Source of the DNA: Gemmatales bacterium
GTDB taxonomy: Bacteria > Planctomycetota > Planctomycetia > Gemmatales > HRBIN36
Direction: 5' to 3'
DNA: 64,000 nucleotides
NCBI GenBank assembly: GCA_041640595.1
Contig: JBEPZY010000005.1
Location: 32,001 to 96,000 of the forward strand
Shown here: piece after piece, positions 7,133-58,316 of the stretch
How positions within the stretch are numbered: position 1 is the first letter of the stretch
Layout: every line of letters starts with the position of its first letter
Notes under the pieces: generated by a model
Seen by the model: only the letters and a program-made list of their open reading frames with translations
Databases searched by the model: none
Told to the model about the DNA's origin: nothing
Position numbers and translations under genes: made by a program

Positions 7133-7144
7133 GCGGAGGATAGG

Positions 7145-9859: not shown

Positions 9860-10276
9860 GCAGTTCCAAAACCTGCCACCGCAGCGTACCTGGCGTTGAC
9901 AATGCTGTGTCATCGCAACACTCAACTCGTCTCGAGGACCGGAAAACATCACCGTCATTCGTGCACATAGGGAGCGATTGCAACTGCGCTCTGGGATTGC
10001 GCTGCTCGTTTGCAAGCTGTTAGTCTCAACTATTCCTGCACAGCGGAGGTGATCGCGACATGTAGCTCGTCGCGTAACAAACGCATAGCCTCTTGGTTAG
10101 TCCACGCCGGTGACCGCGAGGTTTAGCTCGCTTGGTGAACCGGTGGCCAGCCGCGAATTCGTGCTTATGCGACGGAGTTAGCGGGTGTTGTTTACGCAGG
10201 ACAGCAGGTTGCCCCAAGTAGTGGGGTCGTCCTCACGGTAATCCGACAAGCCCCAGCGACTACTATTTAGGCAGGA

Positions 10277-10295
10277 TTGCATTTGTTTTGTGCAA
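10277..10295. promoter_or_regulatory. NtrC-like enhancer box
   Basis: TTGCAT-N7-GTGCAA, close to TGCAC-N7-GTGCA, about 150 bp upstream of a sigma54 motif. Confidence 0.55.
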
Positions 10296-10446
10296 TTGTT
10301 CCCTTTCCTTGGGCAACGCATCTTGAGTACAGCTAATGCTGGATGCCAGCATCACCATGGGACGAGAACGGTTGATAGCAGAAGTTCTTTCGCAAAAAGA
10401 ACTTGCGACTCAGTGCGTAATTCATCGAGGTTGCCGTTAATTGGTT

Positions 10447-10461
10447 TGGCACGGGGGGTGC
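10447..10461 (+). promoter_or_regulatory. Sigma54 (-24/-12) promoter of the nitrate assimilation operon
   Basis: TGGCACGGGGGGTGC, with GG-N10-GC spacing and a TGGCACG core. Confidence 0.65.
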
Positions 10462-10644
10462 GTGAAGGTTACGCGTGCAAATTCGTTAGCGACGCCGGGT
10501 TTAGTGGTGCCTGCACGTAAGCCCGTCCTCTCCCCGGCCCAGCAGGCCAACCCGGCCAAGATTCTGTCGCACTCGCTTACGCCGGAATTCAAAGCGCGTG
10601 AAGGTGCTTTTCTGCGCACATTGTGTGCAATGGAGCCGAAAACA

Positions 10645-13600
10645 ATGGCAAAAAGAGAGGCAGTGGTCGTCGTCGGCAACGGCATGGCCGGAGCTCGCTT
10701 TGTCCAGGCTTTGACTGAGAAAGCTCGCGATCGCTTCACCATCACCGTCTTCGGCGACGAACCGTATGGCAACTACAATCGCATCCTGCTGTCCAGCGTA
10801 CTGGCGGGCGTTAAGCAGCCGGTAGAGATATTCCTCAACCCGACGGAGTGGTACGAGAAGAACGGCATCCGGCTGCATCTGGGCGTGCGGGTGGTGCGGA
10901 TCGATCGGGACCGGCGTGTGGCAGTGGGCCAACCGGCTCGTCACGGCGATGCGGAAGCCGGTCGCGGTTTGCTGCTGGAAGAACCGTATGACTATCTGGT
11001 GCTGGCGACGGGTTCACGGCCGTTTGTGCCAACGATTCCCGGAAAAGATTTACCTGGCGTTTTCGTGTTCCGCACGCTGGATGATTGCGTCGCCTTGCTG
11101 GAAGCCGCCGAACGTGCCGAATGTGCCGTGGTGATCGGTGGCGGTTTACTGGGTCTGGAAGCAGCCCGGGGTCTGCACGGGCGTGGGTTGAAGGTGAGCG
11201 TCGTCGAAATTGCTCCGCATCTGATGGTGCAGCAACTCGACCCGCTCGCCGGCAGAATTCTGCAGCAGCAACTGGAAAAGCTTGGTTTGCGGATATTTGT
11301 GCAGACGCAGGTGAGCCGCATCCTGGGCGAAGGACGAGTGCAGGCGGTGGAATTGCAGGATGGCACCCTGCTGGACGCCGACCTGGTAGTGATCAGCTGC
11401 GGCATCCGGCCCAATGTGGAACTGGCACGGGAAGCAGGGTTAGCAGTTCAGCGCGGTATCGTGGTGGATGACCAGTTGCGCACCAGCGACCCGGCCATAT
11501 TTGCCATCGGGGAATGTGCCGAACATCGCGGGGTAACTTACGGTCTGGTCGAACCGGTTTATGAACAGGCGGAGGTTCTCGCGGACGTTTTAAGTGGCGC
11601 TCGACCGCATGCCTGTTACGCTGGTAGCAAGTTGGCCACAACCTTGAAGGTGATCGGCATAGACCTGACTTCGATGGGCGACGTCAAATCCAGCGATGCC
11701 GATTCCCAGGTGTTCGTAGAAGCTGACCCGCTGAACGGACGCTACCGCAAACTGGTGGTCAAAGATGGCCGGTTGCAGGGAGCGATTCTGCTCGGCGAAA
11801 AAGAATCCGCTCAGAAGCTGCTCTTGTACTTCCGCAGTGGCGAAAAACTACCGGGCCATCCGCTGGAGATCTGGTATCGGTTCAGCCGCGACGGCGAGTC
11901 GAGCGAAGATGGTCAGCAGGACGCTGGCCTGTCGGCAGCCAGTTTGCCGGACGATCAGCAGATTTGCAACTGTCATCGCGTCAGCAAGCGTGAGATCGTT
12001 CGCTGCATCCGAGCTGGTGCCACTTCCATTGAAGCCATCGGCCAGGCCTGCAAAGCGGGCACCGGCTGTGGTAGTTGTCAGGGAATGCTGGGTCATCTGC
12101 TGGCCCACTATGCCCGGCATGCCGTCCAGCAATCCGGGGCTCTCGGCGACACCTCGCAGAACAAAGTGGAGCTGATCAAACGCGAAAAAGACGGTCTCGA
12201 TTCCCTGCCCGACATTCTCCACTATGCCCGGACCGGTAACTGGGAAGAAATGACCGAGGCCGACAAACAACGCTTCAAGTGGCACGGGCTGTTTTTCCGC
12301 ATTCCCACGCCGGGCTATTTCATGCTGCGGATTCGGCATACCTGCGGGCAGAGCAACGCGAGGCAGTTCCGGGTTATCGCCGAGCTTTCCGACAAGTTCG
12401 GCAAGGGTTTCTGCGATCTGACGACACGGCAGCAAATCCAGATGCGCTGGTTCACTATCCGCGACGTGCCGGAAATCTGGGCGCGACTGGCGGAAGTCGG
12501 CCTGAACAGCAAGCAGACCGGCATGGACAACGTGCGTGGCGTATGTGGCTGTCCGCTCAGTGGCCTGGCACCGCATGAGTTATTCGATGCCTCACCCGTG
12601 GCCCGCGAATTCACTTCGCTCATTCTCGACAACAAGGAATTCACCAACTTGCCGCGGAAATTCAACGTGACTATCACCGGCTGCCTGGAAAACTGCTGCC
12701 ATACCGAAACGCAGGACATCGCCCTGGTGCCGAGCTATCGGGAATTGGATGGGCAACAGGTGTTCGGCTTCAACGTGTTCGTGGGTGGCAAGCAGGGTTC
12801 CGGAGGATACACGCCGGCAAAACCGCTGGATGTTTTCGTGCGGCGAGAAGAAGCGGCTCAGCTGTGTGCCGAGATTGTCCGCATTTTCCGCGATCACGGT
12901 TCCCGCGAAAGCCGCACGCGGGCCCGATTGGCTTTTCTGCTCCAGGATCGAGGCGTTCGCTGGTTCCGTCAGGAACTGCAAGCTCGTTGGGGCAAACCAC
13001 TCTTTTCGGCAGGCCCGGAATTACGCAAAAAGCATCACACCGACCACCTCGGTATTCAGCCGCAGAAACGAAAACCCGGCGACTACGGGCCGCAACTTTT
13101 TTCCGTGGGTCTGCTGGTGCCCGTGGGTCGCATCACTACCGACCAGATGCGCGGCGTCGCCGACCTGGCTGAGCGTTATGGCAACGGCGAAATCCGTCTC
13201 ACCGTGCAGCAGAACATCATCATCCCGAACATTCCCGAAGACCGTCTGTCCGCCCTCACCGACGAGCCGCTGCTCAAAGAGTTACCGATCGATCCTTCGC
13301 CCATTTTGCGTGGGCTGGTCTGTTGTACGGGGAATGATTATTGCCACTTCGCGCTCATTGACACGAAAGGTTGGGCCTTGCAGGTGGCCCGGGAACTGGA
13401 ACGGCGAACGCAGGGACAGAAAATCGCTCCGCTGACCATCCACATGTCGGGTTGCCCCGCTGGTTGCGGCTTGCATCAAGTGGCGACGATTGGTTTGCAG
13501 GGTTGCCGCACGCGCATCGGCGACCAGATCGTGGATGCCGCCCATGTGTACATCAACGGCAAATCCGGCCCGCAGCCGCAGATCGCCACCGATGCCATGT

Positions 13601-42114: not shown

Positions 42115-43416
42115 ATGTCCAGAACTGCTTTAGAAGGTATCACGAAGAGGGCCAGGAATTCGACTGCCACTAACAATAAGGAGCTTAACATGCAAAACAA
42201 CGCTTTCGAGAAACGATGTGAAGACCTCAGCCGTGAAATCCGTAGTTTAGAGCAAAAGTCGCAGGAGCTTCAACAAATTTTGCAATGGTATCGGAGCACC
42301 AGTGAGCCGCAACTCATCATTGATTTACACACCAGCCAGCGGCAAGCGGAAGATGTGCGAACGCTTCTCTGGCAATGCGAACGCGAAATTGCCGAACTCA
42401 GCAAACAATTGCGTGATGTCGAATCGCAGCTCGGCAGCTGGCTCAATCCGTTCAACTGGTTTTGTCCGAAGCAACAACTGCTCCGTGAAAACTGTGCCAA
42501 CTTGCGAAGCGCTCTGTCGAAGAAGCAAAAGCAGTATGGCCAGGCGAAAACGCAATTGAACGCACTCGAAGCCAAAATCGAGCAATTGAAGAACCAGTTG
42601 CAACAATATCGGACCTTCGATCTCGCCCATCACGAAAGCCAGTTGGCGGAAGTGCAACAGCAGATTGCCCTCAAGAAAGAAGAACTTGGCCGACTCAGGG
42701 AGCTGAAACGACAGTTGGATCAAAAGTTGCGGCCACTCTACGACGAGGTGGAGGCCCTCGAAGAGGAAAAACGGCAATTGAAATCCCGAATTCAGGTGGC
42801 CGAGGATTTTCAACGCCGACTTGACGAGGCCCCGAATGGCCGCGCCCGTTATGTGCTCCATCAGGAGTGCAAAGACCAATTAGGTGATGAGAAGCCTTTG
42901 TTCATTATCCGGGAAAGCCGTTGTCGTCTGCGAGCCATCGAACGTGACCTCGAGAAGCTATACCAGCGGATTCACCAGGAAATTTCGGCCTTTCTCCGAA
43001 ACTCTGCAATCGAGGAAATCATCATTGACGGCAGCAACCTCTGTTACGAGGACGGTTGTTTCATCGGCCTGGCAGCGTTGAAGGTGCTGGTGCCGGAACT
43101 GGTGAATAAGAATTACCGTGTAGTCGTGGTTTTCGACGCCTCGATTCGGTATAAGCTCAAGACCGGAGACGAAAAGATAACCAGGGCCCTGAGTCCCGCC
43201 AAAGTGCATATCGTCAATACAAGGCAAGCAGCCGACACCTACGTCTTGGATTTGGCTTCTCGGGACGAACATGCCTATGTGCTCAGCAATGACCGATTTG
43301 CCGAGTATCCGGACAGCTCCGTGGTACAGGCCGGACGTATTCTCCGGCACGAAATTGTCAACGGCCAAATCTACATCCCCGACCTGCAAATACGGCTGAC
43401 CTACGGTTCCGCGTAG
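42115..43416 (+). CDS. Coiled-coil protein with C-terminal NYN/PIN (Zc3h12a-like) ribonuclease domain
   Basis: Long Q/E/K/L heptad region, then IIIDGSN...VVFDAS...AADTYVL...VLSNDRFAEY acidic tetrad. Alternative start at 42190. Confidence 0.82.
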   Translation: MSRTALEGITKRARNSTATNNKELNMQNNAFEKRCEDLSREIRSLEQKSQELQQILQWYRSTSEPQLIIDLHTSQRQAEDVRTLLWQCEREIAELSKQLRDVESQLGSWLNPFNWFCPKQQLLRENCANLRSALSKKQKQYGQAKTQLNALEAKIEQLKNQLQQYRTFDLAHHESQLAEVQQQIALKKEELGRLRELKRQLDQKLRPLYDEVEALEEEKRQLKSRIQVAEDFQRRLDEAPNGRARYVLHQECKDQLGDEKPLFIIRESRCRLRAIERDLEKLYQRIHQEISAFLRNSAIEEIIIDGSNLCYEDGCFIGLAALKVLVPELVNKNYRVVVVFDASIRYKLKTGDEKITRALSPAKVHIVNTRQAADTYVLDLASRDEHAYVLSNDRFAEYPDSSVVQAGRILRHEIVNGQIYIPDLQIRLTYGSA

Positions 43417-44315: not shown

Positions 44316-44389
44316 GGGCGCTTAGCTCAGCTGGCTAGAGCGCATGGATCACACCCATGAGGTCGGGGGTTCGAGTCCCTCAGCGCCCA
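44316..44389 (+). tRNA. tRNA-Val(CAC)
   Basis: Acceptor stem GGGCGCT/AGCGCCC plus discriminator A, D-arm GCTC..GAGC, anticodon arm CATGG-ATCACAC-CCATG, GGTTCGAGTCC T-arm; CCA not encoded. Confidence 0.93.
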
Positions 44390-44587
44390 CTGGACAGTTG
44401 TACGCTGAGTTACACGGAGTACTAAGTAGTGATACGGACGTAACTTGCGGTTGACTGTTAGTTTGGCAGTAACGCTCTATATCGCTAGAAAACGCGGTTT
44501 GGTGCTGCGCTTTTTGCTGCGCCTGGATATTCCCGCTCTGAATTGTCGGAATTTCGTTGCCTTGCCAGCTTGGGACATGCTGGCTCC

Positions 44588-45090: not shown

Positions 45091-45544
45091 CCGGGAGCAG
45101 GCAGTCTGGTCTTCATTTTGAAGAAAGTCGTAAATCCGAAGCGGGGCGCTGTGCGTCATAAATGTGGGAATGGATTGGGTGCCCCAGCGATAGCGGATGT
45201 GTAACGTGTGAAGGGCTGTCGCGCGTCACAAATATGGGAATGGATGCGGGGCAAAGCCGAATCGCAACCGCCCAGGCACCCAGAACCGTCGCTCCCTGAA
45301 TAGGCATGGACAAGCGCAGCTAGCCGACATCTGCAACTCGGCTTTCGGGAGCGGGCACCATACCGTAAACTAAACGGCAGGGAACGGACATGCACTTCGG
45401 GGCACAGTCTGTTCCGGCGGGTCGAAGTGCCTGGGGTTGCTTCTGGCAAGGGATACATCCAGACGGGGTGCAGCATCTCACGGTGTCGAAATGCGTGGCC
45501 GTATCGAACCACACGGCCAAAAACCCATCATAAGGAGGCTGGGC

Positions 45545-46945
45545 ATGTCGTGGACAAACAGCATTGCGTGGCTGATGGCGGCTGGATGTGTGGCCTGCAC
45601 GTGGGCCTGCATCATGGGGCAAGAAGTCGGCAAGCCTGGAGGCGCAAAGCCAGCGACCGGTACGCCGGGCCAGACCGAAAAACTGGTGCGTGTTACCGGC
45701 GACGTGGCCAAAACCGTGTTTGCTGCGGAACCCAAGCCGTTGAGCGATTCGGTCAAGCGCGGCTTGCGGTACCTGGTGCAGCAGCAGCGGACGGATGGCG
45801 GTTGGAATCAGGGGGGCGGTTGGCGGACGGATGTGTCGCGTGGTGGACGTATCGAAGGCCCTAACGTGGCTGACCCTTCCGACGTGGGGAACACTGCGTT
45901 CGCATTGCTGGCCCTCATCCGCGCCGGAAATACTCCGAAAGAGGGAGAATACAAGGAAGCGGTGAGCAAGGGTTTGGAGTTCATTTTGAAAAACGTTGAG
46001 AAAGCGGACTGGGATTCGCTGCGTCTCGGCGATGTCCAGGGAACGCAATTGCAGTCGAAGATTGGCCGGTATGTGGATTTGTTCGCAGCTAACTGGGTGC
46101 TGGCAGAATTGCACGGTCGTTGTGGCGATGCTCAGTTGGAAGAGCGGGTCGCTAACGCCCTGGAGAAAACCATGACCAAAATAGTTCGCAACCAACGGCC
46201 GGATGGCACATTCGCCGGCAACGAAGGCTGGGCTTCCACGCTCTCGGTTGGAGTGGCGAACAAAAGCGTGGCGCGAGCGAAAGAGCGCGGCGTGGTCGTG
46301 GACGAAGCTGTGGTGAAGCGAATCGTGGCTCAGGCGGAGAATGCCTTCACTCGCAAACCGGCGGAGGGGGGCTTAGTCGGAGGAGGTGGCTTTGGACGAC
46401 TGGCTGCCGTACCTGGCGCCAGCGATGCCGGAGTTCGCCTCTACAGCGTCGCTCAGGGTGCAAGCAATTTCCAGGATGCCGTCAACAGCTTGCGACGCGA
46501 GGAAATGCGGGCCAGACAAATTCTCCAGGATAAAAATGCGTCTCCCGAAATGCGCCAGAGAGCCCAGGAGATTGTGGAAACCGTCGAAAAGCTGGAGCGG
46601 CAAAATGCTCTGTTGCAGGCGGAGCTACGCAAGAACGTCCGCGATGCCCGTTTCCTGCAGGGCTTCGGAAGCAATGGTGGCGAGGAATTCCTCAGCTTTC
46701 TCAATATCGGCGAGACCCTGGTGTTGACCGGCGGTAAGGAATGGGAGGAGTGGGATGCGCGGATGAGGAAAGGTCTGGAGGCCGCACAGAATCCGGACGG
46801 TTCCTGGTACGGGCAACATTGCATCACCGGCCGAACCTTCTGCACTGCTGCTGCGCTCCTGGTGCTCATGACCGACCGCACCCCGTTCACTCCCGAAACC
46901 ATTTCTGCAGCACGCCAGAAGCAGCAAAGCCAGAAAAACCCCTAA
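45545..46945 (+). CDS. Exported prenyltransferase/squalene-cyclase-fold repeat protein
   Basis: AGGAGG RBS, signal peptide, GLRYLVQQQRTDGGW, NQRPDGTF and AQNPDGSW QW-type repeats. Confidence 0.8.
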   Translation: MSWTNSIAWLMAAGCVACTWACIMGQEVGKPGGAKPATGTPGQTEKLVRVTGDVAKTVFAAEPKPLSDSVKRGLRYLVQQQRTDGGWNQGGGWRTDVSRGGRIEGPNVADPSDVGNTAFALLALIRAGNTPKEGEYKEAVSKGLEFILKNVEKADWDSLRLGDVQGTQLQSKIGRYVDLFAANWVLAELHGRCGDAQLEERVANALEKTMTKIVRNQRPDGTFAGNEGWASTLSVGVANKSVARAKERGVVVDEAVVKRIVAQAENAFTRKPAEGGLVGGGGFGRLAAVPGASDAGVRLYSVAQGASNFQDAVNSLRREEMRARQILQDKNASPEMRQRAQEIVETVEKLERQNALLQAELRKNVRDARFLQGFGSNGGEEFLSFLNIGETLVLTGGKEWEEWDARMRKGLEAAQNPDGSWYGQHCITGRTFCTAAALLVLMTDRTPFTPETISAARQKQQSQKNP

Positions 46946-47028
46946 TCCACGAGCTGCGGCAGAAACAAACGAACCTGGGGCGTGCGCTCGCTGCGCCGCC
47001 CCTTTTCGGAATAGAAGGGGAAGACCGC

Positions 47029-48558
47029 ATGGCTCAGCTGACTCGACGGTCGCTGGCCCTGGGCAGCTTCGGCGTGCTTACCGTAGCGGGGATGGCAATG
47101 GCGTTGTTCGCGCTGACACCAAAACCGCCGGACTCCGACCGGGACAACCAGACCCAGGGCGAACCGCATGCAGTTTTCAAACGCCCGTTTCCGAAAAGTC
47201 CGCCTCCACGAGCCGACCTGAACAAGCTGGTGGAGAAAGCTCTGGTTCGCGGTGCCCAATATCTGATTCAGCAACAGCGTAAGGATGGCTCGTGGCGTTC
47301 AGATCGTTATGAGCCATTCCAGGACGGCACGGCCCTGACTCCGCTGGCGGTTTACGCCCTGGAATGCGTTTACGACTCCGACCCCCTTGATAACCACCTG
47401 CGAAATGCAACTATCCGGGCGAGTGTGCATCGCGGACTGGATTTCCTCGCCAGGTACCACCGCCCGGACGGTTCGCTCAACCTGAAGGAAGACGAGTTGC
47501 CCTATCCGGTTTACACGGCGAGCCTGACGATCCTGGCTCTCGCATGGAACCCAGCACATCCTCTGTTTAGTGATCACTGGGGACGAAAGGCCCCCGAACT
47601 TCGGAAAGCCTGGGTGCAATATTTGAAAGAGCGGCAACTGACCGCCCGGCTGGGCTGGCATCCGGAAGATGCGTTCTACGGCGGATGGGGCTATTGTCGG
47701 CTCATTCCCCGAGCGCCCAAGTCCGGCGAGTTTGCACCGCCTCTGCTGGAATCGAATTTGTCTGCCACCGTGTTCGCTCTCGAAGCCTTGCAAGCCGCCG
47801 GCGAGCTGGATGATGAAACCCGACTGGCAGCGCGACACTTTGTGCTTCGCTGTCAGAACTGGTCGCAACCACTCGGCCCCGGCGACGACGGCGGATTTTT
47901 CTTCATTCCCAACGGCGATCCAGTTCGCAACAAAGCCGGCCGATTGGTGGATTTCCTGCGTGCAGCCGACCGGCCAGCGAAAGGCGACGTACCTGCCGAG
48001 AAAATGCTTTCCTACGGCAGTGCCACTGCGGACGGCCTGCTGGCCATGCTTACCTATACCCGCCCGACCCGCGACATCCGGGATAAGGCCCGAATTTCCG
48101 TGGCTGAGCAACTGGAAAAAAAGGACCGCGAGCGCATCCAGGCGGCGATTCGCTGGCTCCAGAAAAACGGGAGCGTGTCTTACAATCCACCGGGACCTGG
48201 TCTCAACGATGCGGTCAATCGCTGCCGGACTCGTCTCGACGGCGCATACTTCTACTACCTGGCCCGACTGGCTCGACTTTATCCGGACAATCTGGGTCTC
48301 CAATTGGCCGACGGCAACCCCGTGCCTGACCCGAACGGCGGTCCGGCGCCCTGGAAATTCTCGGAGGCGTTAGCCTGGCAGTTGTGTCAATTGCAACGCC
48401 CCGATGGTTCCTGGGCAAATCCCCACGATTTTATGCGGGAGGACGAGCCGATCGTCGCCACCTCTTTTGCTTTACTCGCCCTGTGCCGATTCGACCGCCG
48501 CTCCGCCGGCGACATCTTCCGAAAAATCGGCGACAAAATCGCCCCCATCGCTCCGTAG
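47029..48558 (+). CDS. Exported prenyltransferase/squalene-cyclase-fold repeat protein
   Basis: TRRSL plus hydrophobic signal, GAQYLIQQQRKDGSW, GGWGY, DGGFFF, YGSATADGL, LQRPDGSW. Confidence 0.8.
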   Translation: MAQLTRRSLALGSFGVLTVAGMAMALFALTPKPPDSDRDNQTQGEPHAVFKRPFPKSPPPRADLNKLVEKALVRGAQYLIQQQRKDGSWRSDRYEPFQDGTALTPLAVYALECVYDSDPLDNHLRNATIRASVHRGLDFLARYHRPDGSLNLKEDELPYPVYTASLTILALAWNPAHPLFSDHWGRKAPELRKAWVQYLKERQLTARLGWHPEDAFYGGWGYCRLIPRAPKSGEFAPPLLESNLSATVFALEALQAAGELDDETRLAARHFVLRCQNWSQPLGPGDDGGFFFIPNGDPVRNKAGRLVDFLRAADRPAKGDVPAEKMLSYGSATADGLLAMLTYTRPTRDIRDKARISVAEQLEKKDRERIQAAIRWLQKNGSVSYNPPGPGLNDAVNRCRTRLDGAYFYYLARLARLYPDNLGLQLADGNPVPDPNGGPAPWKFSEALAWQLCQLQRPDGSWANPHDFMREDEPIVATSFALLALCRFDRRSAGDIFRKIGDKIAPIAP

Positions 48559-48701: not shown

Positions 48702-48890
48702 GGGGTGCCGTGCTTGGCGTCGGTTTCAGCTCTGGGCCACTCCAAGCCTGAAAAATCATCATAATGACCACGAGAGGTCGCCACAGTTCGTCAGCGGACG
48801 CGGCAATCCGACCCGTCCCATCGCCAACCCGCTCCCCTCGCCGCACTAGCTCATCTGATGTCAGGGGGTGCCGTGCTTGGCGTCGGTTTC
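48702..48890. repeat. Perfect 26-bp direct repeat pair
   Basis: GGGGTGCCGTGCTTGGCGTCGGTTTC at 48702-48727 and 48865-48890. Confidence 0.9.
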
Positions 48891-49063
48891 GTGTCTTGGC
48901 CAGGCCCGACGTTTGTATTACCAACACCTTGCTTTTTCACAGTTCCGCCATCACCAACCTTAGGAGGAGGAGGCTTCGTCGGCTCTTCCCGGCCGCATCC
49001 GGCAGTCATTAGAGCAATCGCCCACGTGAGCACAACCGCCAGCACTACTCGCAATGGTCTCAT
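48851..49063 (-). CDS. Small Pro/Lys/Thr-rich lipoprotein
   Basis: MRPLR, hydrophobic stretch, lipobox-like TAGC; ATGA overlap with the upstream gene; AAGGAG upstream. Confidence 0.7.
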   Translation of the reverse strand: MRPLRVVLAVVLTWAIALMTAGCGREEPTKPPPPKVGDGGTVKKQGVGNTNVGPGQDTKPTPSTAPPDIR

Positions 49064-49776
49064 TGTCCTTCTCCTTGTTTTGCTGGTTCCTGAGGTTTAT
49101 CCGCCGCAAAACGCTTCGCACACTGTTCTAGGAACTCGCACAGTTTTAGCCAGTCTTCCGTGGCCTTTTGCACCAGGCAGTCCTTTATGGTCGTCTCGCC
49201 GTCTTTAGTACTATATTTGAACGCCATTACGAGTATGTTAGCTTCCGCCTTATTTACCTGAGCACGGTTAACCGCCTCTCGAAGATTTCGAGTTAGGTCC
49301 TGGATGGTGCTTTGCGCTTGTTGGTAACTTTTTCGCAAGAGGGCGTCGTCCTGGGGTTTGTTAGGCTTGGTCACCAGATTAGGTTGGGGAGCGGGCCTTG
49401 TGGCTTCTAGCGACAGTCCTAGCGCCGATACGACCAGGGCCAAAATAGCGAGTCCCAAACAAGTTAGCCATACCCAGCCGAGTCTGGGCCACTTATAAAC
49501 GGTTACGTGAAAACTATAAATTCTCCCCGCCTCGTTAGTCTTTTCTTGCTCAAACCGTCTGCGTATGTCCAGCAACACTCCATCAGCTCGGGCGAGACAA
49601 CGCCCGTCCTGCTGGTAATCTTGCTCGGCGAGCTGACTCAACCAGGTGAGCACTTTATTTCTGTACGGATCAGTTCGGCCCTGGAAGCTGGACTGAGAAA
49701 CCTGGTAGCCACCGGCATTCCAGGTTACCAGATAAGATGCTATCGGCCTGAGCGCGGAGCATGAGTTGCGCGCCAT
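49060..49776 (-). CDS. Single-pass membrane protein: small N-terminal globular domain, TM, coiled-coil/helical C-terminus
   Basis: TM WVWLTCLGLAILALVVSALGL; tightly coupled to its neighbours. Confidence 0.75.
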   Translation of the reverse strand: MARNSCSALRPIASYLVTWNAGGYQVSQSSFQGRTDPYRNKVLTWLSQLAEQDYQQDGRCLARADGVLLDIRRRFEQEKTNEAGRIYSFHVTVYKWPRLGWVWLTCLGLAILALVVSALGLSLEATRPAPQPNLVTKPNKPQDDALLRKSYQQAQSTIQDLTRNLREAVNRAQVNKAEANILVMAFKYSTKDGETTIKDCLVQKATEDWLKLCEFLEQCAKRFAADKPQEPAKQGEGQ

Positions 49777-49789
49777 GGCGACACCCCTG

Positions 49790-51655
49790 TTACTTCGCCG
49801 GTCGTTTCAAAATATCGGGAATTACCCCAGCGAATTTTGTTTCTTTCACTAGGAGGGTCAATTTGTAGTACTCTGACTTCAGGATAATCGCTTGGCCCTC
49901 ACAGCCTAGAAAAGGTGCTCCTATGTGGTATAACGAACTCGGCGGCAACTTATTGTTCGACTGGCTTAAATCCCATGTTACGTTCGTGTACTCCCATTTC
50001 TCGTTCACGAAATTGTAAACGTAGATCGAGACCGTTATCTCTTGCTCCCATTGGAAGGTCTCCGTCACTGGCCCCTTTTTGGGCGGTCGCTGATACTTGC
50101 CTTTTTTGTCCGGCTCTAGCCACCAAGGATTCTGATCCCACTTGCCGAAGACGAGGCCATGACCGAAACGTCTAGTGTTTTCGTCGGGACCTGAATACTC
50201 CAGTGTCGGCTCGAAAACGACCTGATAGGGCTCTTTTGGCGATTCTAAGAACGTTATGGCCTGGTTTAATTCGCTTGCGGGCCTTTCTTTGCCTGGCACG
50301 TGATAGCGCTCGAGTTTGTCCCTTTCCTCTCTTAGGAGCTTAATCGCATCCTTGCGGCTGTCGACTTTTTTCGGGTCACTCAAATCGGCAACGATAGTGT
50401 CGCGTAATTTGTCCCAGAAGTGCCGCTGCGCTTGCCGTAATTCCTCCACACTGGCAGAAGGTCTCGCTTGAGCAAGTATGCGGTTCAGGCCCTCTAACTT
50501 GCGGTTCCGGCCCTCTAAATCATGTAAATTTATCGTCCTAAGATCATTTTGCAAGCGCCTCCCAATTTCGTTGAGCTGCTGGCGTAATTGCTCTGCCCGC
50601 TTGTTGGGCCTCACGGCCAGCACGCAACCGTTCCGCAGAAGCTCACCGAGACGTGTTTGCTCCTTTTGCTCTCTCGGAAACTCGCGCCCTTCCGCCCAGG
50701 GTTGCAGCTCGTTTAGCACTCTTTCGATGTCCGGATCCGGGGGTATTAGGATTGAAATAAGGAGCCAGAACAAAGAGATAATCAAAGCAACCGCGAGAAG
50801 CACTTCCAACGGTTTGAGACGCAACTTACGAGCGAAGTCGTCCAGCTCGAAGAGGGTGCGCACCGTTGCCGTCAGTTGCCGGCCCTGTTCCGACGGAATG
50901 TGTTGCCGGCAGGGAGGATTGGCCACTTCTCGGACCGTCCTTCTCGGGTCAACGAGTCTGTCCGGTGCCTGGGGCCACTTGTCTTTTATCAAATCCGCAA
51001 TTTTTTCCCGAAACAGACGTGATAGGTCTCTTTGTTCCGGGTTGGTTTGCCAAAGGTCTTTGGCGGTGATGACGAAGATGACAGGTCGCATGCCTGGGCC
51101 GTTGCGCAGCGCTGGGCCCCGCCCTTCCAGCAAAGCCTCCAGCAAGCTTTCGGCACGCTCCAACTCCAATGTCAAATGGTCTTCATTAGAGTAGCGGTCC
51201 TGCTTCTGGGTCGGGTTGAAGAAAAACAAAAACGCGTCACATTGGCGTACCATGCTGGCCAGTTGACCCGATGAAGGATAACCCTCGCTTGCTTCCTTGT
51301 CCAGCTCCTCGCCAAACAGATCGTGAACCTCGATGCGGTACTGCCTTGTTTCTTTAGGACTATAGGAAAATTTCCAGACGAAACTGATTCCTTCCCAGGA
51401 TTCGGAAGTGCGCCCGGGGCGACCGTGCTGTTCGATCTCTTTGCCAACCACGTCGAGAAACCGCCGGCACTTTTCGTTGGGTTCGGCCAGCTGGTTTTGC
51501 TCATCCAAGTAGCGCAGGAAGTTGTAAAGGAACAACGTTTTGCCGGCGTGCGTGTAACCGTAAATGCCGATGTTGAGCGAGCGCGTCCGGCGAGAGGCTC
51601 GCTCCAGCCAGTTGGCGAGCGACCGAAGTACCTTGCTGGGGTATGCCGAGCTCAT
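49790..51655 (-). CDS. Membrane-anchored TRAFAC-like GTPase
   Basis: G1 IGIYGYTHAGKT, putative G2 T (GRTSE), G3 DLFGE, CDAFLFFFNP strand, G4 VITAKD; central TM LLAVALIISLFWLLISILI; GGAGGT RBS. Confidence 0.8.
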   Translation of the reverse strand: MSSAYPSKVLRSLANWLERASRRTRSLNIGIYGYTHAGKTLFLYNFLRYLDEQNQLAEPNEKCRRFLDVVGKEIEQHGRPGRTSESWEGISFVWKFSYSPKETRQYRIEVHDLFGEELDKEASEGYPSSGQLASMVRQCDAFLFFFNPTQKQDRYSNEDHLTLELERAESLLEALLEGRGPALRNGPGMRPVIFVITAKDLWQTNPEQRDLSRLFREKIADLIKDKWPQAPDRLVDPRRTVREVANPPCRQHIPSEQGRQLTATVRTLFELDDFARKLRLKPLEVLLAVALIISLFWLLISILIPPDPDIERVLNELQPWAEGREFPREQKEQTRLGELLRNGCVLAVRPNKRAEQLRQQLNEIGRRLQNDLRTINLHDLEGRNRKLEGLNRILAQARPSASVEELRQAQRHFWDKLRDTIVADLSDPKKVDSRKDAIKLLREERDKLERYHVPGKERPASELNQAITFLESPKEPYQVVFEPTLEYSGPDENTRRFGHGLVFGKWDQNPWWLEPDKKGKYQRPPKKGPVTETFQWEQEITVSIYVYNFVNEKWEYTNVTWDLSQSNNKLPPSSLYHIGAPFLGCEGQAIILKSEYYKLTLLVKETKFAGVIPDILKRPAK

Positions 51656-51685
51656 TGCAAACACCTCCGGAATGGTACACCGCTT

Positions 51686-52612
51686 TTAGTTCGGATTCTG
51701 TGCTTGCGGTTTGCCTTGTTCTGGTGGGCCCTCCTCAATAACGACCCACCCTCCGAAGACTTGACGGATGAGGTTCCGGACAGTGCTGAGCGCAGCCTCA
51801 CCTGGGTCGGGCAGCGTGTCCAACTTTACCCGGTTTTTCATTACATCATCCGGAGACAGATCACCTTTGATCGCGCTGAGCTGCTCTTTTAGTTTGCTCT
51901 CCCATTCTTGCGTATCTCGGCCCTCCACTTTTAGTGTTTTCGTTTGGTCACGGTTGCTCTTGGAGCGCCAATCCAGATGTACCGTCAAGTGTTTGGCTTG
52001 GTTACGGGGTTTTGGGCCTGCTTGGGGGCCGGAATCGGGAGAAGCCTGACCCTGTGCTTTAGGTTTTGCGTGGTCAGTCTTTGAGAGCTCCAGCTCCCAG
52101 CGAATCCGCAGGAAGACGTTTTCTGGCAGTTTTTGGGGGATTGTTGGGAATGTAGGGCCCGGGATGAGAGGGGTTGGCGGTTTTGGGGCCTCATCATTCT
52201 TTGAACGGCCTAGAAGATAATACGTAATGAACCCAGCGACGATCCCAGCGACCAGAGCGAGCGTTACGGCTGCCCAGGCAGGGACTATGATCATCCCCAC
52301 GACCAATACGGCGGTTCCCACTATGACGCCGACCATCGTTGCAATCAACAGGCGTTGAGCCTCGGCAATTGATTCCAGAAGATTGGATTTGCCAAGCCAG
52401 GCTCCGATGTTCCAGTTCGCGCTGACGATGCCCTGGATCGATGGCGATGCACGAGGCGGTTCCAGTTGCTGTAGTCCGGCAAAATCACTTAATCCGGTTA
52501 CGGATGAAGCAGGTGCCAGGCTATTTGCCGGGGTGCTGGAATATGCCACGGCGCCTGCGATAAGTCCAGTCAAAAGTGCCGCAGTGCACAGGGGCCAAGT
52601 AGGCCGTCGCAT
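51686..52612 (-). CDS. Membrane protein: signal/TM, two TMs, Pro-rich linker, C-terminal domain
   Basis: Hydrophobic segments; PKPPTPLIPGPTFPTIP; AAGGAG RBS. Confidence 0.75.
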   Translation of the reverse strand: MRRPTWPLCTAALLTGLIAGAVAYSSTPANSLAPASSVTGLSDFAGLQQLEPPRASPSIQGIVSANWNIGAWLGKSNLLESIAEAQRLLIATMVGVIVGTAVLVVGMIIVPAWAAVTLALVAGIVAGFITYYLLGRSKNDEAPKPPTPLIPGPTFPTIPQKLPENVFLRIRWELELSKTDHAKPKAQGQASPDSGPQAGPKPRNQAKHLTVHLDWRSKSNRDQTKTLKVEGRDTQEWESKLKEQLSAIKGDLSPDDVMKNRVKLDTLPDPGEAALSTVRNLIRQVFGGWVVIEEGPPEQGKPQAQNPN

Positions 52613-52648
52613 GATGTGTCTCCTTTGTGCCGCGCCGGTCTGGTTTCA

Positions 52649-53083
52649 CTATTCGAAAGCGAAGCGGACGCGGCGGACGAAGTAAACAGGTCGCTCCCAT
52701 TCTTTCTCTAATTTGCCCCTTCTTTCTTCCGGCCAGGCGCGATCGAAGCCGCGATCACTGAGCAAAATCATGACTCGCACTTCTTGCGGGTTAGTGCTGA
52801 TGTTCTGGGCCAGATGGTCAACCTCACCTTTGCTCTTGAGTTCTTTATTGCTTCGCCTCCAGCTTCCTCGGGCATCTTTTTCGAGAAGAAAGATACGGCC
52901 CTCCAGGTCGCCATAGGTGCCGCCGTAAAGGAGCAGAAACTGTGTGGGAGTCCCTTCCAAACTTACTGGGCGACGGCCAACGCGATACTGAGCCGTCACC
53001 AGTATGACCATCAACACTGCCAGCAGGCAGAGCGTAACATCCAGCAGCGACAAAAAGCGCACAATGACGCCAGTTGCTCGCAT
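52649..53083 (-). CDS. ExbD/TolR-like protein
   Basis: N-terminal TM SLLDVTLCLLAVLMVIL carrying the conserved intramembrane Asp; lies directly downstream of an ExbB-like gene. Confidence 0.7.
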   Translation of the reverse strand: MRATGVIVRFLSLLDVTLCLLAVLMVILVTAQYRVGRRPVSLEGTPTQFLLLYGGTYGDLEGRIFLLEKDARGSWRRSNKELKSKGEVDHLAQNISTNPQEVRVMILLSDRGFDRAWPEERRGKLEKEWERPVYFVRRVRFAFE

Positions 53084-53093
53084 ATTCGCGTGC

Positions 53094-53501
53094 CTATCTC
53101 TTAGTTTGGAACCACTGCAGCAGGTAAAGCGCTGCGTTCAGGAAGATATTGACGACCGCCCAGATCAGTCCGGAAATAGTGGTGGTCAAAGCCGGGGCCA
53201 GATTCATGACCATCTGGCCCACATCGGGGACATCTGCCCCTTCCAGGCCATAAGAGGTCAGTCCGTAAAAAGTATTGAGCAGCGCAATGACAGTGCCCAA
53301 AAGACCCAGCAGCGGCAATACTTCGGTGAAACTGAGCAGCGTGGCACGGAAAGTGTCGAAGTTCTCAATAGGGTGGAGCCTCCACCAGTATCGGTACAGG
53401 TACCAGACTAAACTTCCAAAATGGAGCAGGAAAAGGATACCTCCAAAAACCCAGATAACCGTATCGAGTGGCCCAAATGCTTGCCAGTAGTATTCGAGCA
53501 T
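53094..53501 (-). CDS. Minimal MotA/TolQ/ExbB proton-channel family protein (135 aa)
   Basis: LPLLGLLGTVIAL...F and ALTTTISGL..A signatures; three TMs; GGAGGT RBS. Confidence 0.85.
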   Translation of the reverse strand: MLEYYWQAFGPLDTVIWVFGGILFLLHFGSLVWYLYRYWWRLHPIENFDTFRATLLSFTEVLPLLGLLGTVIALLNTFYGLTSYGLEGADVPDVGQMVMNLAPALTTTISGLIWAVVNIFLNAALYLLQWFQTKR

Positions 53502-53540
53502 AGACATACCTCCACACCTACCGGCCAACGCTTTGGTCTT

Positions 53541-53570
53541 ATGATAGTGCGCCCAGACCAGAGTGGGCAA
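53541..53570 (-). promoter_or_regulatory. Putative sigma70 promoter of the six-gene operon
   Basis: Minus strand TTGCCC-N18-TATCAT about 40 bp before the start codon. Confidence 0.45.
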
Positions 53571-53821
53571 GAAAAAAATTGGAAAGTGCTGCGACTTTTT
53601 CCTCTCAGCTGGGCAGGATGAGCTGCACAGGACCCCGGGCTTGAAAACCAGACCGCGACACGCTGGAACTAAACGTTCACCGCTTGCCCATGCGCTTCCG
53701 TTACGAGGCACCGGTCGGACGTCAGCGGAAAGGAACGACTGACCGCCGGCGGGTGCATACTGCCCACCGGCCAGTGGGAACCGCCCACCTCGTCGCTGAA
53801 AATCGCCTACTCGCCCCGATA

Positions 53822-53880
53822 CCAGCTACTGGCCGCTGATTACCGGCCGCTGGTCACTGGCCACTGGTCACTGGCCACTG
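53822..53880. repeat. Heptamer tandem array (CACTGGY-type)
   Basis: ...ctggtcactggccactggtcactggccactg. Confidence 0.8.
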
Positions 53881-53891
53881 ATTTGGTTCGG

Positions 53892-54752: not shown

Positions 54753-54821
54753 GAGGTAAGCCCCTAGTAGCGGCGGCTGAGCAAGCCGCGACGGTCCCTC
54801 ACAAATGACCTGTGAGCAGGG

Positions 54822-55278
54822 ACCAGTGGTCAGTGATCGGTGACCAGTGGCCAGTGGCTGGTGGCTGCTCATCGGCGACAAGTCATTAGTGCGCATTGTC
54901 CGCTGACCGGTGCTCAGTGACCCGTGATCGATGACAGATGGTCACTGACAGCCCGCCACTCATCACCAAGCACCAGTCGCCAGCCCCTGGCCACTAATTA
55001 CTGACCACTGGTCACCGGCGGCTAATCACTGGCCACTGTTCACGGGTCACTAAATTACTGGCCACTGGTCACTTACCACCGGCCACTGGGCACGGGCCAC
55101 TAATTGCTGGCCACTGGTCACTTACCACTGGCCACTTGCTCTTGATGTCGGATCACTTGTTTCCAGTCACCGATCGCTGGCCACTGGTCACCTACCACTG
55201 ACCACTGATTACTGGCCGCTGCTCACTGGCCACTGGCCACTGATCGCCGGCCACTGGTCACTGACCACCGGCCACTGA
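54822..55278. repeat. Heptamer tandem arrays in inverted arrangement
   Basis: CAGTGGY-type run at about 54822-54865, then a long CACTGGY/TACTGAC-type run at about 54940-55278. Confidence 0.88.
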
Positions 55279-55317
55279 TTTAGTGTAAGATGGTAGCAAG
55301 CAATTGTCCCACGCGAG

Positions 55318-56544: not shown

Positions 56545-56883
56545 TTAGTTGCTATCCGAACCAGTGGGCTGCACCAGTTCCCGAATGCGCACGGCAAAGC
56601 GATCCTGCACCACGACGACTTCGCCGCGGGCTACCAGCACACCGTTGATCCGTAAATCCACCGGCTGGCTAATGTCGCGGTCGAGTTCGAGCACCGAGCC
56701 TGGGCCGAGCCGTAAGACCTCGCGTAACGGCAACTGGGCTCGCCCCAGTTCAGCCGTGATGGTAACGGTGACTTTGTGCAGGTGATCCAGCGGTGCCGGC
56801 GATTCTGATGTGGTTTTGGGAGTCAGTTCCGTAAATTCAGCGGTATGGGCGATGATTTCGCTCATTTCGGCGGAAGTGGACAT
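56545..56883 (-). CDS. fliN: Flagellar motor switch protein FliN
   Basis: AELGRA...GSVLELD...PVDLRING..VARGEVVVV..RFAVRI. Confidence 0.93.
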   Translation of the reverse strand: MSTSAEMSEIIAHTAEFTELTPKTTSESPAPLDHLHKVTVTITAELGRAQLPLREVLRLGPGSVLELDRDISQPVDLRINGVLVARGEVVVVQDRFAVRIRELVQPTGSDSN

Positions 56884-56949
56884 GGTCTTGCTCCAGACTG
56901 GCGGCAGGTATTGGCCAGAAAGCAGCCGTAAGCTCTGCCGACTACTCGG

Positions 56950-57810
56950 TCACTGGCCAGTGGGCACCGGGTCAAGGGTAGCCGCGATTTGCACGGCCTG
57001 TTTGCTGCCCACCCGACCTGGCCAGGCGGTGTAGCGGGCACTTCCCTCCACGAGGACCAGTAATGGTTCCTCGAGCCGCTGTTCCAGGAGCAGCACATCG
57101 CCTGCTCGCAGTCGTTGCAGATGCGCCAGCGGCAAGCGAACCTGACCGAGCTGCACCTGCACTTTCAAAGGCACTTGCTGAAGGGCCTCTTCGATACGTC
57201 CCGGCGATTTCGGAGCCGTTGTTTCCAGTGCAAAAAATTGCTGCATCACCGCTTCGCTCAGCAACCACCAGACCAACCCGTCTGCGAAAGGTGGTTCGCC
57301 TCGCAGTTCGGCAACAGCCAGGGCGAATTGCTGGCGAAAAATTGGGGTAAATTGCGGAGCCGCCTCTCGAGCCTGGCGTTGCCATTGCGGTACTGGTTCC
57401 CGGCCCCAGCTTTCCCGCGCCAGGGCAAGAAAAACCTGGTCGAGGAACTGCTCCCACAGACTCGTTTCAATCACGGTCAACGGTCGGTCAGCGGGCAGAC
57501 TTTCACATCGTTCGCCCAGTTGCGCCAGTGTCCAGGCCAGCACCAGCGGACGGGAAACCACCAGCAGCGATGACGCCGAGTTCGACCAGGCGATGATGTA
57601 GGCCAGGACGTTTTCGGGCAGCTGGCTCAGGGCAGATTCGGTATAAGCGCGGCGAAGCGACTCCAGCCGTAAACTGAGCGGCAGGTGCAATTCACGCCGG
57701 CAATAGTCGTTGCATTGGGTCAGAAACACCGTCAGCCAAGCCCGCAATTGTCGAGAAACTTCGGGCGGATATGGTTGCGGCTGGCGAAAATCGTAAGGCG
57801 TGGCATTCAT
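56950..57810 (-). CDS. fliM: Flagellar motor switch protein FliM
   Basis: PYDFRQP, RPLTVIE, C-terminal SpoA domain; lies between fliL and fliN. Confidence 0.85.
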   Translation of the reverse strand: MNATPYDFRQPQPYPPEVSRQLRAWLTVFLTQCNDYCRRELHLPLSLRLESLRRAYTESALSQLPENVLAYIIAWSNSASSLLVVSRPLVLAWTLAQLGERCESLPADRPLTVIETSLWEQFLDQVFLALARESWGREPVPQWQRQAREAAPQFTPIFRQQFALAVAELRGEPPFADGLVWWLLSEAVMQQFFALETTAPKSPGRIEEALQQVPLKVQVQLGQVRLPLAHLQRLRAGDVLLLEQRLEEPLLVLVEGSARYTAWPGRVGSKQAVQIAATLDPVPTGQ

Positions 57811-58316
57811 TGCACGGTAAACTCTTCAAAATGCACCTGGCGGATCACCTCCCGGCCATCTGGATAAAGCATCTCGTTGAAATGATCGCGAATTTCCCGG
57901 CGGATGCGATTGATCCCGACGGTGCCTCGCACCTCCTCGAGTGTACGGTCAGCCAGGTAACTGATCAGCCAGCTTTTGAGCGGTGCCTTGCGCTTGTTGA
58001 GCAATTCGTTGAGCTTCTTTTCTTCGCTCTCTTCGACTTCCAGCACAATTTTGAGCCGCAGATAGCGGGTGAGCCGTTCTTCGTGCAAATTGACCACGAC
58101 ATCCCCGAAAGTGACGAACGCCGTCTTTTCTTCTTTTTTACTGCTGTGGCTCCTGGGGGAAGTATCCGCGTGACCTGCCGAGCCAGCGCCGGAAATGAAC
58201 CAGGGAACAGCAAAGCCGGCGGCAATGGACACCAGGGCAATTCCGCCCAGCGCTATCCAGCCGAGCAGCCCACTCTTTTTCGGTGTCTCGGTGGTTTGCT
58301 GTGCCGTTTCTGCCAT
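57807..58316 (-). CDS. fliL: Flagellar basal body-associated protein FliL
   Basis: N-terminal TM, VVNL...RYLR, C-terminal VHFEEFTVQ. Confidence 0.88.
   Translation of the reverse strand: MAETAQQTTETPKKSGLLGWIALGGIALVSIAAGFAVPWFISGAGSAGHADTSPRSHSSKKEEKTAFVTFGDVVVNLHEERLTRYLRLKIVLEVEESEEKKLNELLNKRKAPLKSWLISYLADRTLEEVRGTVGINRIRREIRDHFNEMLYPDGREVIRQVHFEEFTVQ

Follow-up and report, generated by a model that had tools for sequence, protein, structure and literature searches.

A six-gene planctomycete cassette that combines a miniature ExbB/ExbD-like motor with a membrane GTPase

A cassette of six co-oriented genes is found on the minus strand at positions 48851-53507 of a 64,000-nucleotide (nt) stretch of contig JBEPZY010000005.1 from a Gemmatales bacterium (hereafter, the window). 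The genes, designated g1 to g6, probably encode one inner-membrane-anchored, proton-driven, GTPase-gated machine that spans the cell envelope, and we place the probability of this reading at roughly 0.65. It rests on gene order and its recurrence, on family and fold assignments, and on conserved catalytic residues. The parts belong to known superfamilies, and their combination, together with four protein families (g2 by sequence, g3, g5, and the g4 ectodomain), appears to be undescribed. The genes are listed below, with lengths in amino acids (aa) and with TM denoting transmembrane.

53094-53507, minus strand: g1, 137 aa, miniature channel subunit of the MotA/TolQ/ExbB family
52649-53083, minus strand: g2, 144 aa, probable ExbD/TolR-type partner, with an N-terminal TM helix bearing Asp15 and then a small, presumably periplasmic alpha/beta domain
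51686-52612, minus strand: g3, 308 aa, membrane-anchored protein with a Pro-rich linker and a C-terminal domain of ~100 aa; orphan family
49790-51664, minus strand: g4, 624 aa, predicted bitopic GTPase
49060-49776, minus strand: g5, 238 aa, predicted bitopic partner; orphan family
48851-49063, minus strand: g6, 70 aa, predicted short lipoprotein

Successive genes from g1 through g5 are separated by 10, 36, 21, and 13 nt, and the last pair, g5 and g6, share 4 nt. A first-pass annotation of the window, made from the sequence alone, had reported six tightly spaced genes on one strand, and the open reading frames (ORFs) confirm this arrangement. It had described their products as a very small ExbB/MotA-family protein, an ExbD-like protein with a TM Asp, a Pro-rich membrane protein, a GTPase with G1, G3, and G4 motifs, a TM segment and a large distal domain, a TM protein, and a lipoprotein, and all six descriptions hold up in the analyses that follow. 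The cassette is regarded as one functional unit because of this tight and overlapping arrangement, because the gene order is conserved in all informative loci, and because the flanking genes change from one locus to the next.

Related loci were collected by pattern scans, which returned 16: three in genomes and 13 in metagenomes, not counting the window's own contig. Homologues of g1 and g2 are upstream of the GTPase gene, in the same order, in 11 of the 11 loci with at least 1.7 kb of upstream sequence (L003-L008, L012-L014, L016, and L018). These 11 loci are not independent and represent roughly seven lineages, and the other five of the 16 are too short upstream to tell. The order that is kept, g1-g2-(g3 or TM-A plus TM-B)-GTPase-g5-lipoprotein, persists down to a GTPase identity of ~30%, and the composition of the cassette is constant across loci except for one versus two paralogues at the g3 position. 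The same gene order is also present in two more genomes (G624 and G436). Thus, the GTPase does recur with the ExbB/ExbD-like pair, as the first-pass annotation had proposed to check.

The genome loci come from metagenome-assembled genomes with the labels Isosphaeraceae, Thermoguttaceae, and Planctomycetota, and the cassette is also found in Gemmataceae. It is rare. A g2 profile detects it in 8 of 267 genomes of the order, and neither the g2 profile nor a GTPase profile finds it in any of 400 other sampled genomes of the phylum. Nor was it found in three other genomes of the window's genus (completeness 78-93%), which are ~70% identical to the window in DNA sequence and in which the two flanks are on different contigs. 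A search of the family's genomes with the GTPase as a single protein gave 0 of 14, a count that covers intact close relatives only; degenerate homologues surfaced later by way of g2.

The six genes do not diverge at one rate. Between the window and locus L003, identity is 89% for g1 and 93% for g2, compared with 38% for g3 and 46.5% for g4 (the last measured against P0004, a relative of that lineage). The lineage of a 109,703-nt contig is 80%, 83%, and 60% identical to the window in g1, g2, and g4, respectively. Because g1 and g2 retain ~90% identity whereas g3 and g4 retain 38-47%, the periplasm-exposed and switch parts appear either to evolve much faster than the motor or to be exchanged as modules. 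In L004, L005 (positions 8176-11908), and L006, the matches to g1, g2, and the GTPase are each broken into two to three pieces in different frames, with the same pattern on the three contigs. Either the cassette has decayed in this lineage or the three contigs have an assembly error in common.

The g1 protein matches the Pfam family PF01618 (MotA_ExbB) with an E-value of 2.2e-10 and 40.8 bits against a cut-off of 22.9. Its relatives form at least 215 clusters; the 120 that were listed are 132-165 aa long, mostly 133-140 aa, and 114 of these 120 carry a precomputed PF01618 tag. When a profile of 42 g1 sequences is compared with the PDB, the matches are ExbB (7ajq, E 6e-5; 5sv0, E 6.6e-4) and TolQ (8odt, E 0.009). 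A HMMER alignment places the 'LLGTV' of g1 on the 'LFGTV' of Escherichia coli ExbB, and its 'PALsTT' on 'EALLAT'. The core formed by TM2 and TM3 is kept, with T72 and T110 aligned with the 'GTV' and 'LLAT' motifs of ExbB, and both threonines and P65 are invariant in the 42 aligned sequences. Conserved threonines line the pore in the MotA/TolQ/ExbB family (PMC12204202). The conserved Glu of ExbB TM3 corresponds to an invariant Pro in g1.

The g1 protein has three hydrophobic segments, with ~17-20 residues between the first two, and almost no cytoplasmic domain. The sizeable cytoplasmic domain between TM1 and TM2 is absent, and ExbB and TolQ chains in the PDB are 220-287 aa long. Judged by these alignments, g1 is a stripped-down member of the MotA/TolQ/ExbB family. 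Its ORF can be extended upstream to a GTG at 53711, but the long form was rejected as a gene because relatives are mostly 133-140 aa long and because GGAGG precedes the ATGs at 53507 and 53501. The second of these ATGs, 7 nt after GGAGG, is an alternative start.

The g2 protein has no Pfam or NCBIfam match at E <= 1, including to ExbD (PF02472), and no PADLOC match. As a control, the same Pfam ExbD model detects four ExbD genes elsewhere in the genome. None of 88 g2 relatives carries a Pfam tag, and a seven-sequence g2 profile finds nothing among PDB sequences at E <= 10. Asp15 and Arg9 are nonetheless invariant in 47 of 47 relatives, which bears out the membrane Asp of the original description. 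An AlphaFold2 model with a predicted local distance difference test (pLDDT) score of 83.5 consists of a TM helix at residues 3-35 and then a small alpha/beta domain. In this model, the presumed periplasmic domain resembles the TolR/ExbD fold, with modest scores. A Foldseek search of the model against the PDB gave nothing at E <= 0.001, and its top matches were to YeaZ, NTPDase, and YqgF-type folds with TM-scores of 0.2-0.3. An hhalign comparison with the genome's own ExbD proteins aligns only the TM Asp motif, with D15 on the TM Asp, and does so weakly (E 0.01, probability 4%). We read g2 as a probable ExbD/TolR-type partner that has diverged beyond sequence recognition. A prediction of a complex of four g1 and two g2 chains, run with alignments, not in the native 5:2 ratio and without controls, scored 0.11 against a mark of 0.32 and weighs neither way.

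The same genome (G000) has two canonical ExbB-ExbD-ExbD clusters (C2:576518-578411 and C3:118351-120277) and seven MotA/ExbB-family matches overall. The motor of the cassette is therefore an extra, specialized copy.

The g3 protein contains a hydrophobic stretch at residues 85-136 and is 9.4% Pro. Its architecture resembles the TonB/TolA topology, and the distribution of charges indicates that its C-terminal domain should be periplasmic. In a distant clade, g3 is replaced by two paralogues, TM-A (~230 aa) and TM-B (~215 aa), with a P-x-P-G-E motif in common, and this pair stands in place of g3 in most relatives. The g3 family has no Pfam match, including to TonB_C or any other domain, and a PDB profile search that included the paralogues returned nothing below E 0.04. 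Kinship between g3 and g2 was considered and rejected, in that hhalign finds no relation between the two families.

The g4 protein is the predicted switch of the system. Its AlphaFold2 model has a pLDDT of 91.7, and it is divided as follows.

50825-51583, minus strand: G domain, residues 28-280, predicted to be cytoplasmic
50747-50812, minus strand: TM helix, residues ~285-306, with a hydropathy of 3.0 and helical in the model, preceded by Lys/Arg and followed by acidic residues
49793-50734, minus strand: ectodomain, residues 311-624 (~310 aa), with helices at 311-474 and strands at 480-610 (beta-rich), probably periplasmic

The G domain carries the motifs G1 (GxxxxGKT), G3 (DxxGE), and G4 (TxxD). 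Among 58 aligned members of the family, the catalytic residues are kept in 57 (K42), 57 (D115), 58 (G118), 52 (E119), 56 (T200), and 57 (D203), and a central hydrophobic or TM segment is present in 58 of 58. The family is small: of 1.84 billion proteins searched, 79 representatives match at E <= 1e-3. The closest families are DO-GTPase1 and DO-GTPase2, which are matched at E <= 0.01 by 30 and 35 of the 58 relatives, respectively. A Glu in the Walker B motif is a hallmark of DO-GTPases (Kaur et al. 2020, PMC7159879), and the corresponding E119 of DxxGE is found in 52 of the 58. These similarities suggest that g4 is a divergent branch of the DO-GTPase clade, not a clean member of it, and they agree with the kinship to TRAFAC GTPases of conflict systems that had been proposed at first. 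Among the G-domain matches of a structure search, Rag, Rab, and Ras score above MglA, which is not among the best. The ectodomain retains G582 in 55 and P616 in 56 of the 58 sequences, and it has no relative in Pfam (chance-level matches only), nothing below E 0.04 in a PDB profile search, and no usable match in the ESM Atlas.

The g5 protein comprises an N-terminal domain of ~95 aa, one TM segment (97-127), and a C-terminal part of ~110 aa. Homologues follow the GTPase gene in eight related loci, and in the distant clade the GTG start of g5 overlaps the GTPase stop codon, behind the Shine-Dalgarno sequence AAAGGAG. No match to g5 was found in Pfam, PADLOC, or the ESM Atlas, and a PDB profile search gave nothing below E 0.04.

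The g6 protein begins with a signal peptide followed by Cys23 (...ALMTAGC|GREE) and ends in a Pro/Lys-rich tail. Pattern matching places a short ORF with a signal peptide and a Cys after g5 in L005, L008, L012, L015, and L016 as well, and visual inspection does so in L009 and L018; L014 and L043 yielded none. No OmpA, TolB, Pal, TonB_C, or TonB-dependent-receptor domain was detected by Pfam in any of the six proteins at E <= 1, consistent with the absence of such components that was initially reported.

A reduced form of the cassette is present in another genus of the same family, all five species of which carry g2. In two of these (G007 and G010), g1, g2, TM-A, and TM-B are followed by an uninterrupted ORF for a homologue of the GTPase, and the locus lacks g5 and g6.

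L044:6766-8061, plus L045:11436-12731 (minus and plus strands, respectively): 431-aa GTPase homologue of the reduced cassette

The 431-aa protein is homologous to residues 140-484 of g4 (hhalign probability 99.6%, E 1.9e-24). It has G-H-G-V-D at the P-loop position instead of GKT, it is without the beta-rich domain, and the two degenerate homologues are 47% identical to each other. A third species (G009, L042:9561-11378) has only g1, g2, TM-A, and a 93-aa ORF, with no detectable GTPase homologue. In G007 and G010, a membrane acyltransferase gene (PF01553) is directly upstream on the same strand. The motor and the g3-type proteins therefore form a module that is able to exist without an active GTPase. 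Conservation of the catalytic residues in 52-58 of 58 family members would fit the earlier proposal of a GTPase-switched machine, but, given the genus that keeps the motor with a P-loop-less homologue, the proposal does not apply to every member.

From these data we infer how the six products may assemble, with what stoichiometry and topology, and how they might use protons and GTP. The g1 protein would form a minimal ring of the ExbB/TolQ type, with g2 as an ExbD/TolR-type plug whose membrane Asp could take up protons beside the conserved threonines of the ring. From its membrane anchor, the g3 protein would extend through the periplasm as TonB or TolA does. The g4 protein would act as a transmembrane switch, with its Ras-like G domain in the cytoplasm, a single helix, and a periplasmic domain of ~310 aa. 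The g5 protein, apparently translationally coupled to g4, is likely its partner on both sides of the membrane, and g6 may be the lipid-anchored outer end. The periplasmic parts would then be worked mechanically by proton flow through g1 and g2, and g4, through its nucleotide state, would decide whether the motor engages, or would report a periplasmic event to the cytoplasm.

The cassette shares features with several known systems. It resembles Ton and Tol-Pal in that g1 belongs to the MotA/TolQ/ExbB family and keeps the TM2/TM3 core and conserved threonines, in that g2 has a single TM helix with an Asp and a periplasmic domain that is probably TolR/ExbD-like in fold, and in that a protein of TonB/TolA-like topology comes next and a predicted lipoprotein closes the operon. 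It differs in that g1 has 137 aa and no cytoplasmic domain, in that g2 is missed by the Pfam ExbD model, in that TonB_C, TolB, Pal/OmpA, and a receptor are absent, and in that the operon includes, as integral members, a membrane GTPase and its partner.

Zorya consists of the ZorAB motor plus ZorC/D or ZorE. Like Zorya, the cassette appears to be a rare accessory set in which a MotAB/ExbBD-type motor is repurposed outside flagella and Ton/Tol; unlike Zorya, it has a g1 without a long C-terminal tail, no cytoplasmic nuclease or helicase effector, and a GTPase instead. PADLOC-DB v2 includes Zorya models.

No Pfam match at E <= 1 to GAP1-N, GAP1-M, or GAP1-C was found in g5, in the C-terminal half of g4, or in the other products; Pfam includes GAP1 models. 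Like the DO-GTPase/GAP1 systems of PMC7159879, the cassette has a G domain nearest to DO-GTPase1 and DO-GTPase2, the Walker B Glu, and a gene that tightly follows the GTPase gene, as GAP1 does. Some GTPases of the GAP1-N2 type have a C-terminal TM segment and then extracellular beta-sandwich domains, and such systems are found in planctomycetes (Kaur et al. 2020, PMC7159879). In contrast to the systems described there, the cassette has no GAP1, GASH, FNIII-repeat, N-terminal zinc ribbon, or variable effector.

New periplasmic force transducers, their function unknown, have repeatedly been recruited by TolQR-like motors, in Planctomycetes among other groups (Williams-Jones et al. 2025, PMC12204202). 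The clusters reported in that study (vWA, TPH-vWA) are similar to the cassette in that TolQ-like and TolR-like genes accompany inner-membrane-tethered proteins in the Planctomycetes-Verrucomicrobia-Chlamydiae (PVC) group. They are dissimilar in that their transducers are vWA proteins, none of which is detected here by Pfam, and the word 'GTPase' is absent from the main text of PMC12204202. No description of the present gene combination was found in the literature searched. The text and two supplementary files of Kaur et al. 2020 (PMC7159879) do not mention MotA, ExbB, ExbD, or TolQ. DO-GTPases also come up in a 2026 preprint on ParA-like NTPases, in which ExbB, MotA, and TolQ do not appear. 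In line with the first-pass annotation, which did not recognize the gene combination as a named system, the cassette falls outside the definitions of Ton, Tol-Pal, Zorya, and DO-GTPase/GAP1 systems.

The guanine-plus-cytosine (GC) content of 48851-53507 is 0.5375, compared with 0.59-0.61 in the flanks and a genome mean of 0.576, and of 4294 equally long genome windows, 9.5% do not exceed the value of the cassette. Thus, the cassette is AT-richer than its flanks, as was first noted by eye, but the difference is moderate, and on the scale of the genome the cassette is not an extreme outlier. The single promoter suggested at the outset corresponds to one element.

53541-53570, minus strand: promoter-like hexamer pair TTGCCC-18-TATCAT upstream of g1, matching 9 of 12 consensus positions; candidate

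This pair does exist, but promoter-like sites in the region are not above the expectation from shuffled sequences (3 found, against 2.5 +/- 1.7), and it is kept as a candidate only for that reason.

Near-identical DNA is found in sequencing runs labelled as hot-spring, microbial-mat, or freshwater metagenomes. The four runs compared consist of assembled contigs, which carry no depth, strand, or transcript-end information. In one RNA library, contigs are present for 28 of the 30 bins into which the region was divided, and they extend across the g4/g3 and g3/g2/g1 junctions; this is compatible with expression, and also with carry-over of DNA into the library. Among the contigs of the four runs, none joins the two flanks without the operon, as an empty site would. 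Contig breaks at ~48545/48744 and 53830-53883 fall on intergenic repeats. Tandem arrays of the heptamer GGCCACT, also with periods of 14, 21, 28, 35, and 70, are located at 53827-53883, 54821-54863, and 54987-55280 of the window, where they fill the intergenic regions on both sides of an inositol-monophosphatase gene; at 53830-53883, contigs assembled from other samples end or differ.

If the six products form the proposed machine, it may act in conflict or defence, as Zorya-like envelope surveillance that possibly ends in membrane depolarization. We give the machine and this use together somewhat less than even odds, and we lean towards this use, if only slightly, over ordinary envelope physiology. 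The lean derives from circumstantial findings: the kinship to DO-GTPases, a patchy and probably horizontally spread distribution, fast-evolving exposed parts, frequent decay, some defence neighbours, and a GC content below that of the flanks. DO-GTPase1 and DO-GTPase2 come from predicted conflict systems (Kaur et al. 2020, PMC7159879). A further extension, rather unlikely in our estimation, is that the cassette is the founding example of an undescribed class in the PVC group, in which a motor, fast-evolving periplasmic sensors, and a DO-GTPase-like switch together make an envelope-surveillance immune system. A phage or other attack would be sensed at the surface, and the motor itself would answer, for example by a controlled dissipation of the membrane potential, with no separate enzymatic effector.

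Clear defence genes were found near the cassette in two of seven distinct contexts. In L015, genes of a type III-B CRISPR system (Cmr3, Cmr4, Cmr5, and a fused Cmr6/Csm3-like RAMP protein; 6645-10839, minus strand) are 3.6 kb downstream of the cassette copy. In L016, a NucC-like nuclease, DndE, and a bpX4 gene are nearby. The defence scan was ambiguous for L005 and L012 and gave nothing for L014, and L018 and the window have one weak and probably spurious match each. In a separate observation, a protein with an MrfA Zn-binding domain is encoded between the L015 copy and its CRISPR genes.

Several findings weigh against reading the cassette as a GTPase-gated machine that serves in defence. The count of two in seven is itself one of them, and the defence-island context suggested by the first-pass annotation is weak by this measure. 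In the window, the cassette is flanked by housekeeping genes, namely those for inositol monophosphatase, a Dph6-like ATPase, and SQHop-cyclase-like repeat proteins, together with fliLMN. No recognizable effector domain (nuclease, protease, NADase, or pore-former) is present in the six proteins, and none of them matches a PADLOC model at E <= 0.01 in a test that covered ZorA/ZorB with ZorC/D or ZorE, so that the proposed comparison with known defence models came back negative; up to E 1, the sole match is a weak one to g3 (E 0.076). The cassette was not found in plasmid or phage collections, and the g1 alignment finds no relative on viral contigs. Its GC content is merely at the 9.5th percentile of the genome. 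The g4 sequence itself scores 19.6 bits against DO-GTPase1, below the Pfam gathering cut-off of 27. Finally, the reduced form looks more like a retained cellular function, one for which GTP hydrolysis would be dispensable.

Other features of the window are near the cassette. A fliL-fliM-fliN cluster (56545-58316, minus strand) is ~3 kb upstream, an adjacency not seen in the six other contexts. Two adjacent squalene-hopene-cyclase-like repeat proteins, probably secreted or membrane-anchored, are encoded at 45437-46945 and 46741-48558 on the plus strand; as listed, the second ORF overlaps the first, and its true start is probably further downstream. A tRNA-Val (CAC) gene at 44316-44390 (plus strand) is 4.5 kb from the end of the cassette, with no integrase or repeat linking the two. 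In a 433-aa protein encoded at 42115-43416 (plus strand), a long N-terminal coiled-coil part precedes a Zc3h12a-like NYN ribonuclease domain at the C terminus (E 6e-9). Its gene sits in the lowest-GC stretch of that half of the window (0.505-0.54), and it has a weak PADLOC match to LmuB, probably caused by the coiled coil.

The most serious alternative keeps the machine and changes its use. The cassette could be an analogue of Tol-Pal or Ton that is specific to its lineage and draws on the proton-motive force for ordinary envelope physiology. It might anchor or reshape the outer membrane, or transport a lipoprotein or polymer, with the GTPase coupling this work to growth, the division site, or stress. 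All of the products are predicted to reside in the envelope, with a lipoprotein as the last of them, g3 and its paralogues appear to have TonB/TolA topology, and the flanks are mostly housekeeping genes. TolQR-like motors elsewhere have gained new transducers, including in Planctomycetes (PMC12204202). The lack of an effector and of a PADLOC match at E <= 0.01 points the same way, as does the genus in which g2 is present in five of five species: the three read in detail have the reduced form, two of them with the co-oriented acyltransferase gene upstream. However, a cassette with so sparse and scattered a distribution (8 of 267 genomes in the order and none of 400 sampled elsewhere in the phylum), and absent from the three other genomes of its genus, is not a core function. 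The genome already has its two canonical ExbB-ExbD-ExbD clusters among seven MotA/ExbB matches, g3 and g4 diverge fast relative to the motor, and no OmpA/Pal, TolB, TonB_C, or receptor domain accompanies them. On balance, we regard envelope physiology as a real possibility, with odds only slightly below those of the defence role.

An improbable alternative is a device for surface motility, adhesion, or secretion. It is suggested by analogy with the Agl-Glt machinery of Myxococcus, which has a TolQR-like motor, two TonB-like proteins, and the Ras-like MglA. Against it, Pfam reveals no outer-membrane beta-barrel, TonB_C, MglB/roadblock, or large periplasmic scaffold in the six proteins, MglA is outscored among the G-domain matches, and the fliLMN genes adjoin the cassette in the window only.

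That an ExbB/ExbD-like pair merely neighbours an unrelated GTPase, with no joint function, is very improbable: one genus does have a motor-plus-TM-A module without an active GTPase, and G009 lacks any detectable GTPase homologue, but the order is kept in 11 of 11 loci and two genomes down to ~30% GTPase identity amid changing flanks, the gaps are tight with overlapping starts and stops, and the reduced form keeps a GTPase homologue at the same position (hhalign 99.6%).

Known roles of MotAB/ExbBD/TolQR-type motors are the driving of flagella, nutrient import, outer-membrane maintenance, and gliding and, in Zorya, defence against phages. If the six genes do encode a GTPase-gated envelope machine, a motor wired to a transmembrane Ras-like GTPase would represent a new mode of control, by nucleotide state across the membrane, and the DO-GTPase clade, so far only predicted in conflict systems, would gain a concrete mechanical partner. 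At 137 aa, g1 is near the smallest conceivable member of its family, which makes it attractive for structural work on motor function. No annotated family covers g2 (by sequence), g3, g5, or the ectodomain of g4, and with these four of its six proteins the cassette defines new families. Because the envelopes of planctomycetes are poorly understood, a dedicated envelope machine in these bacteria would be informative.

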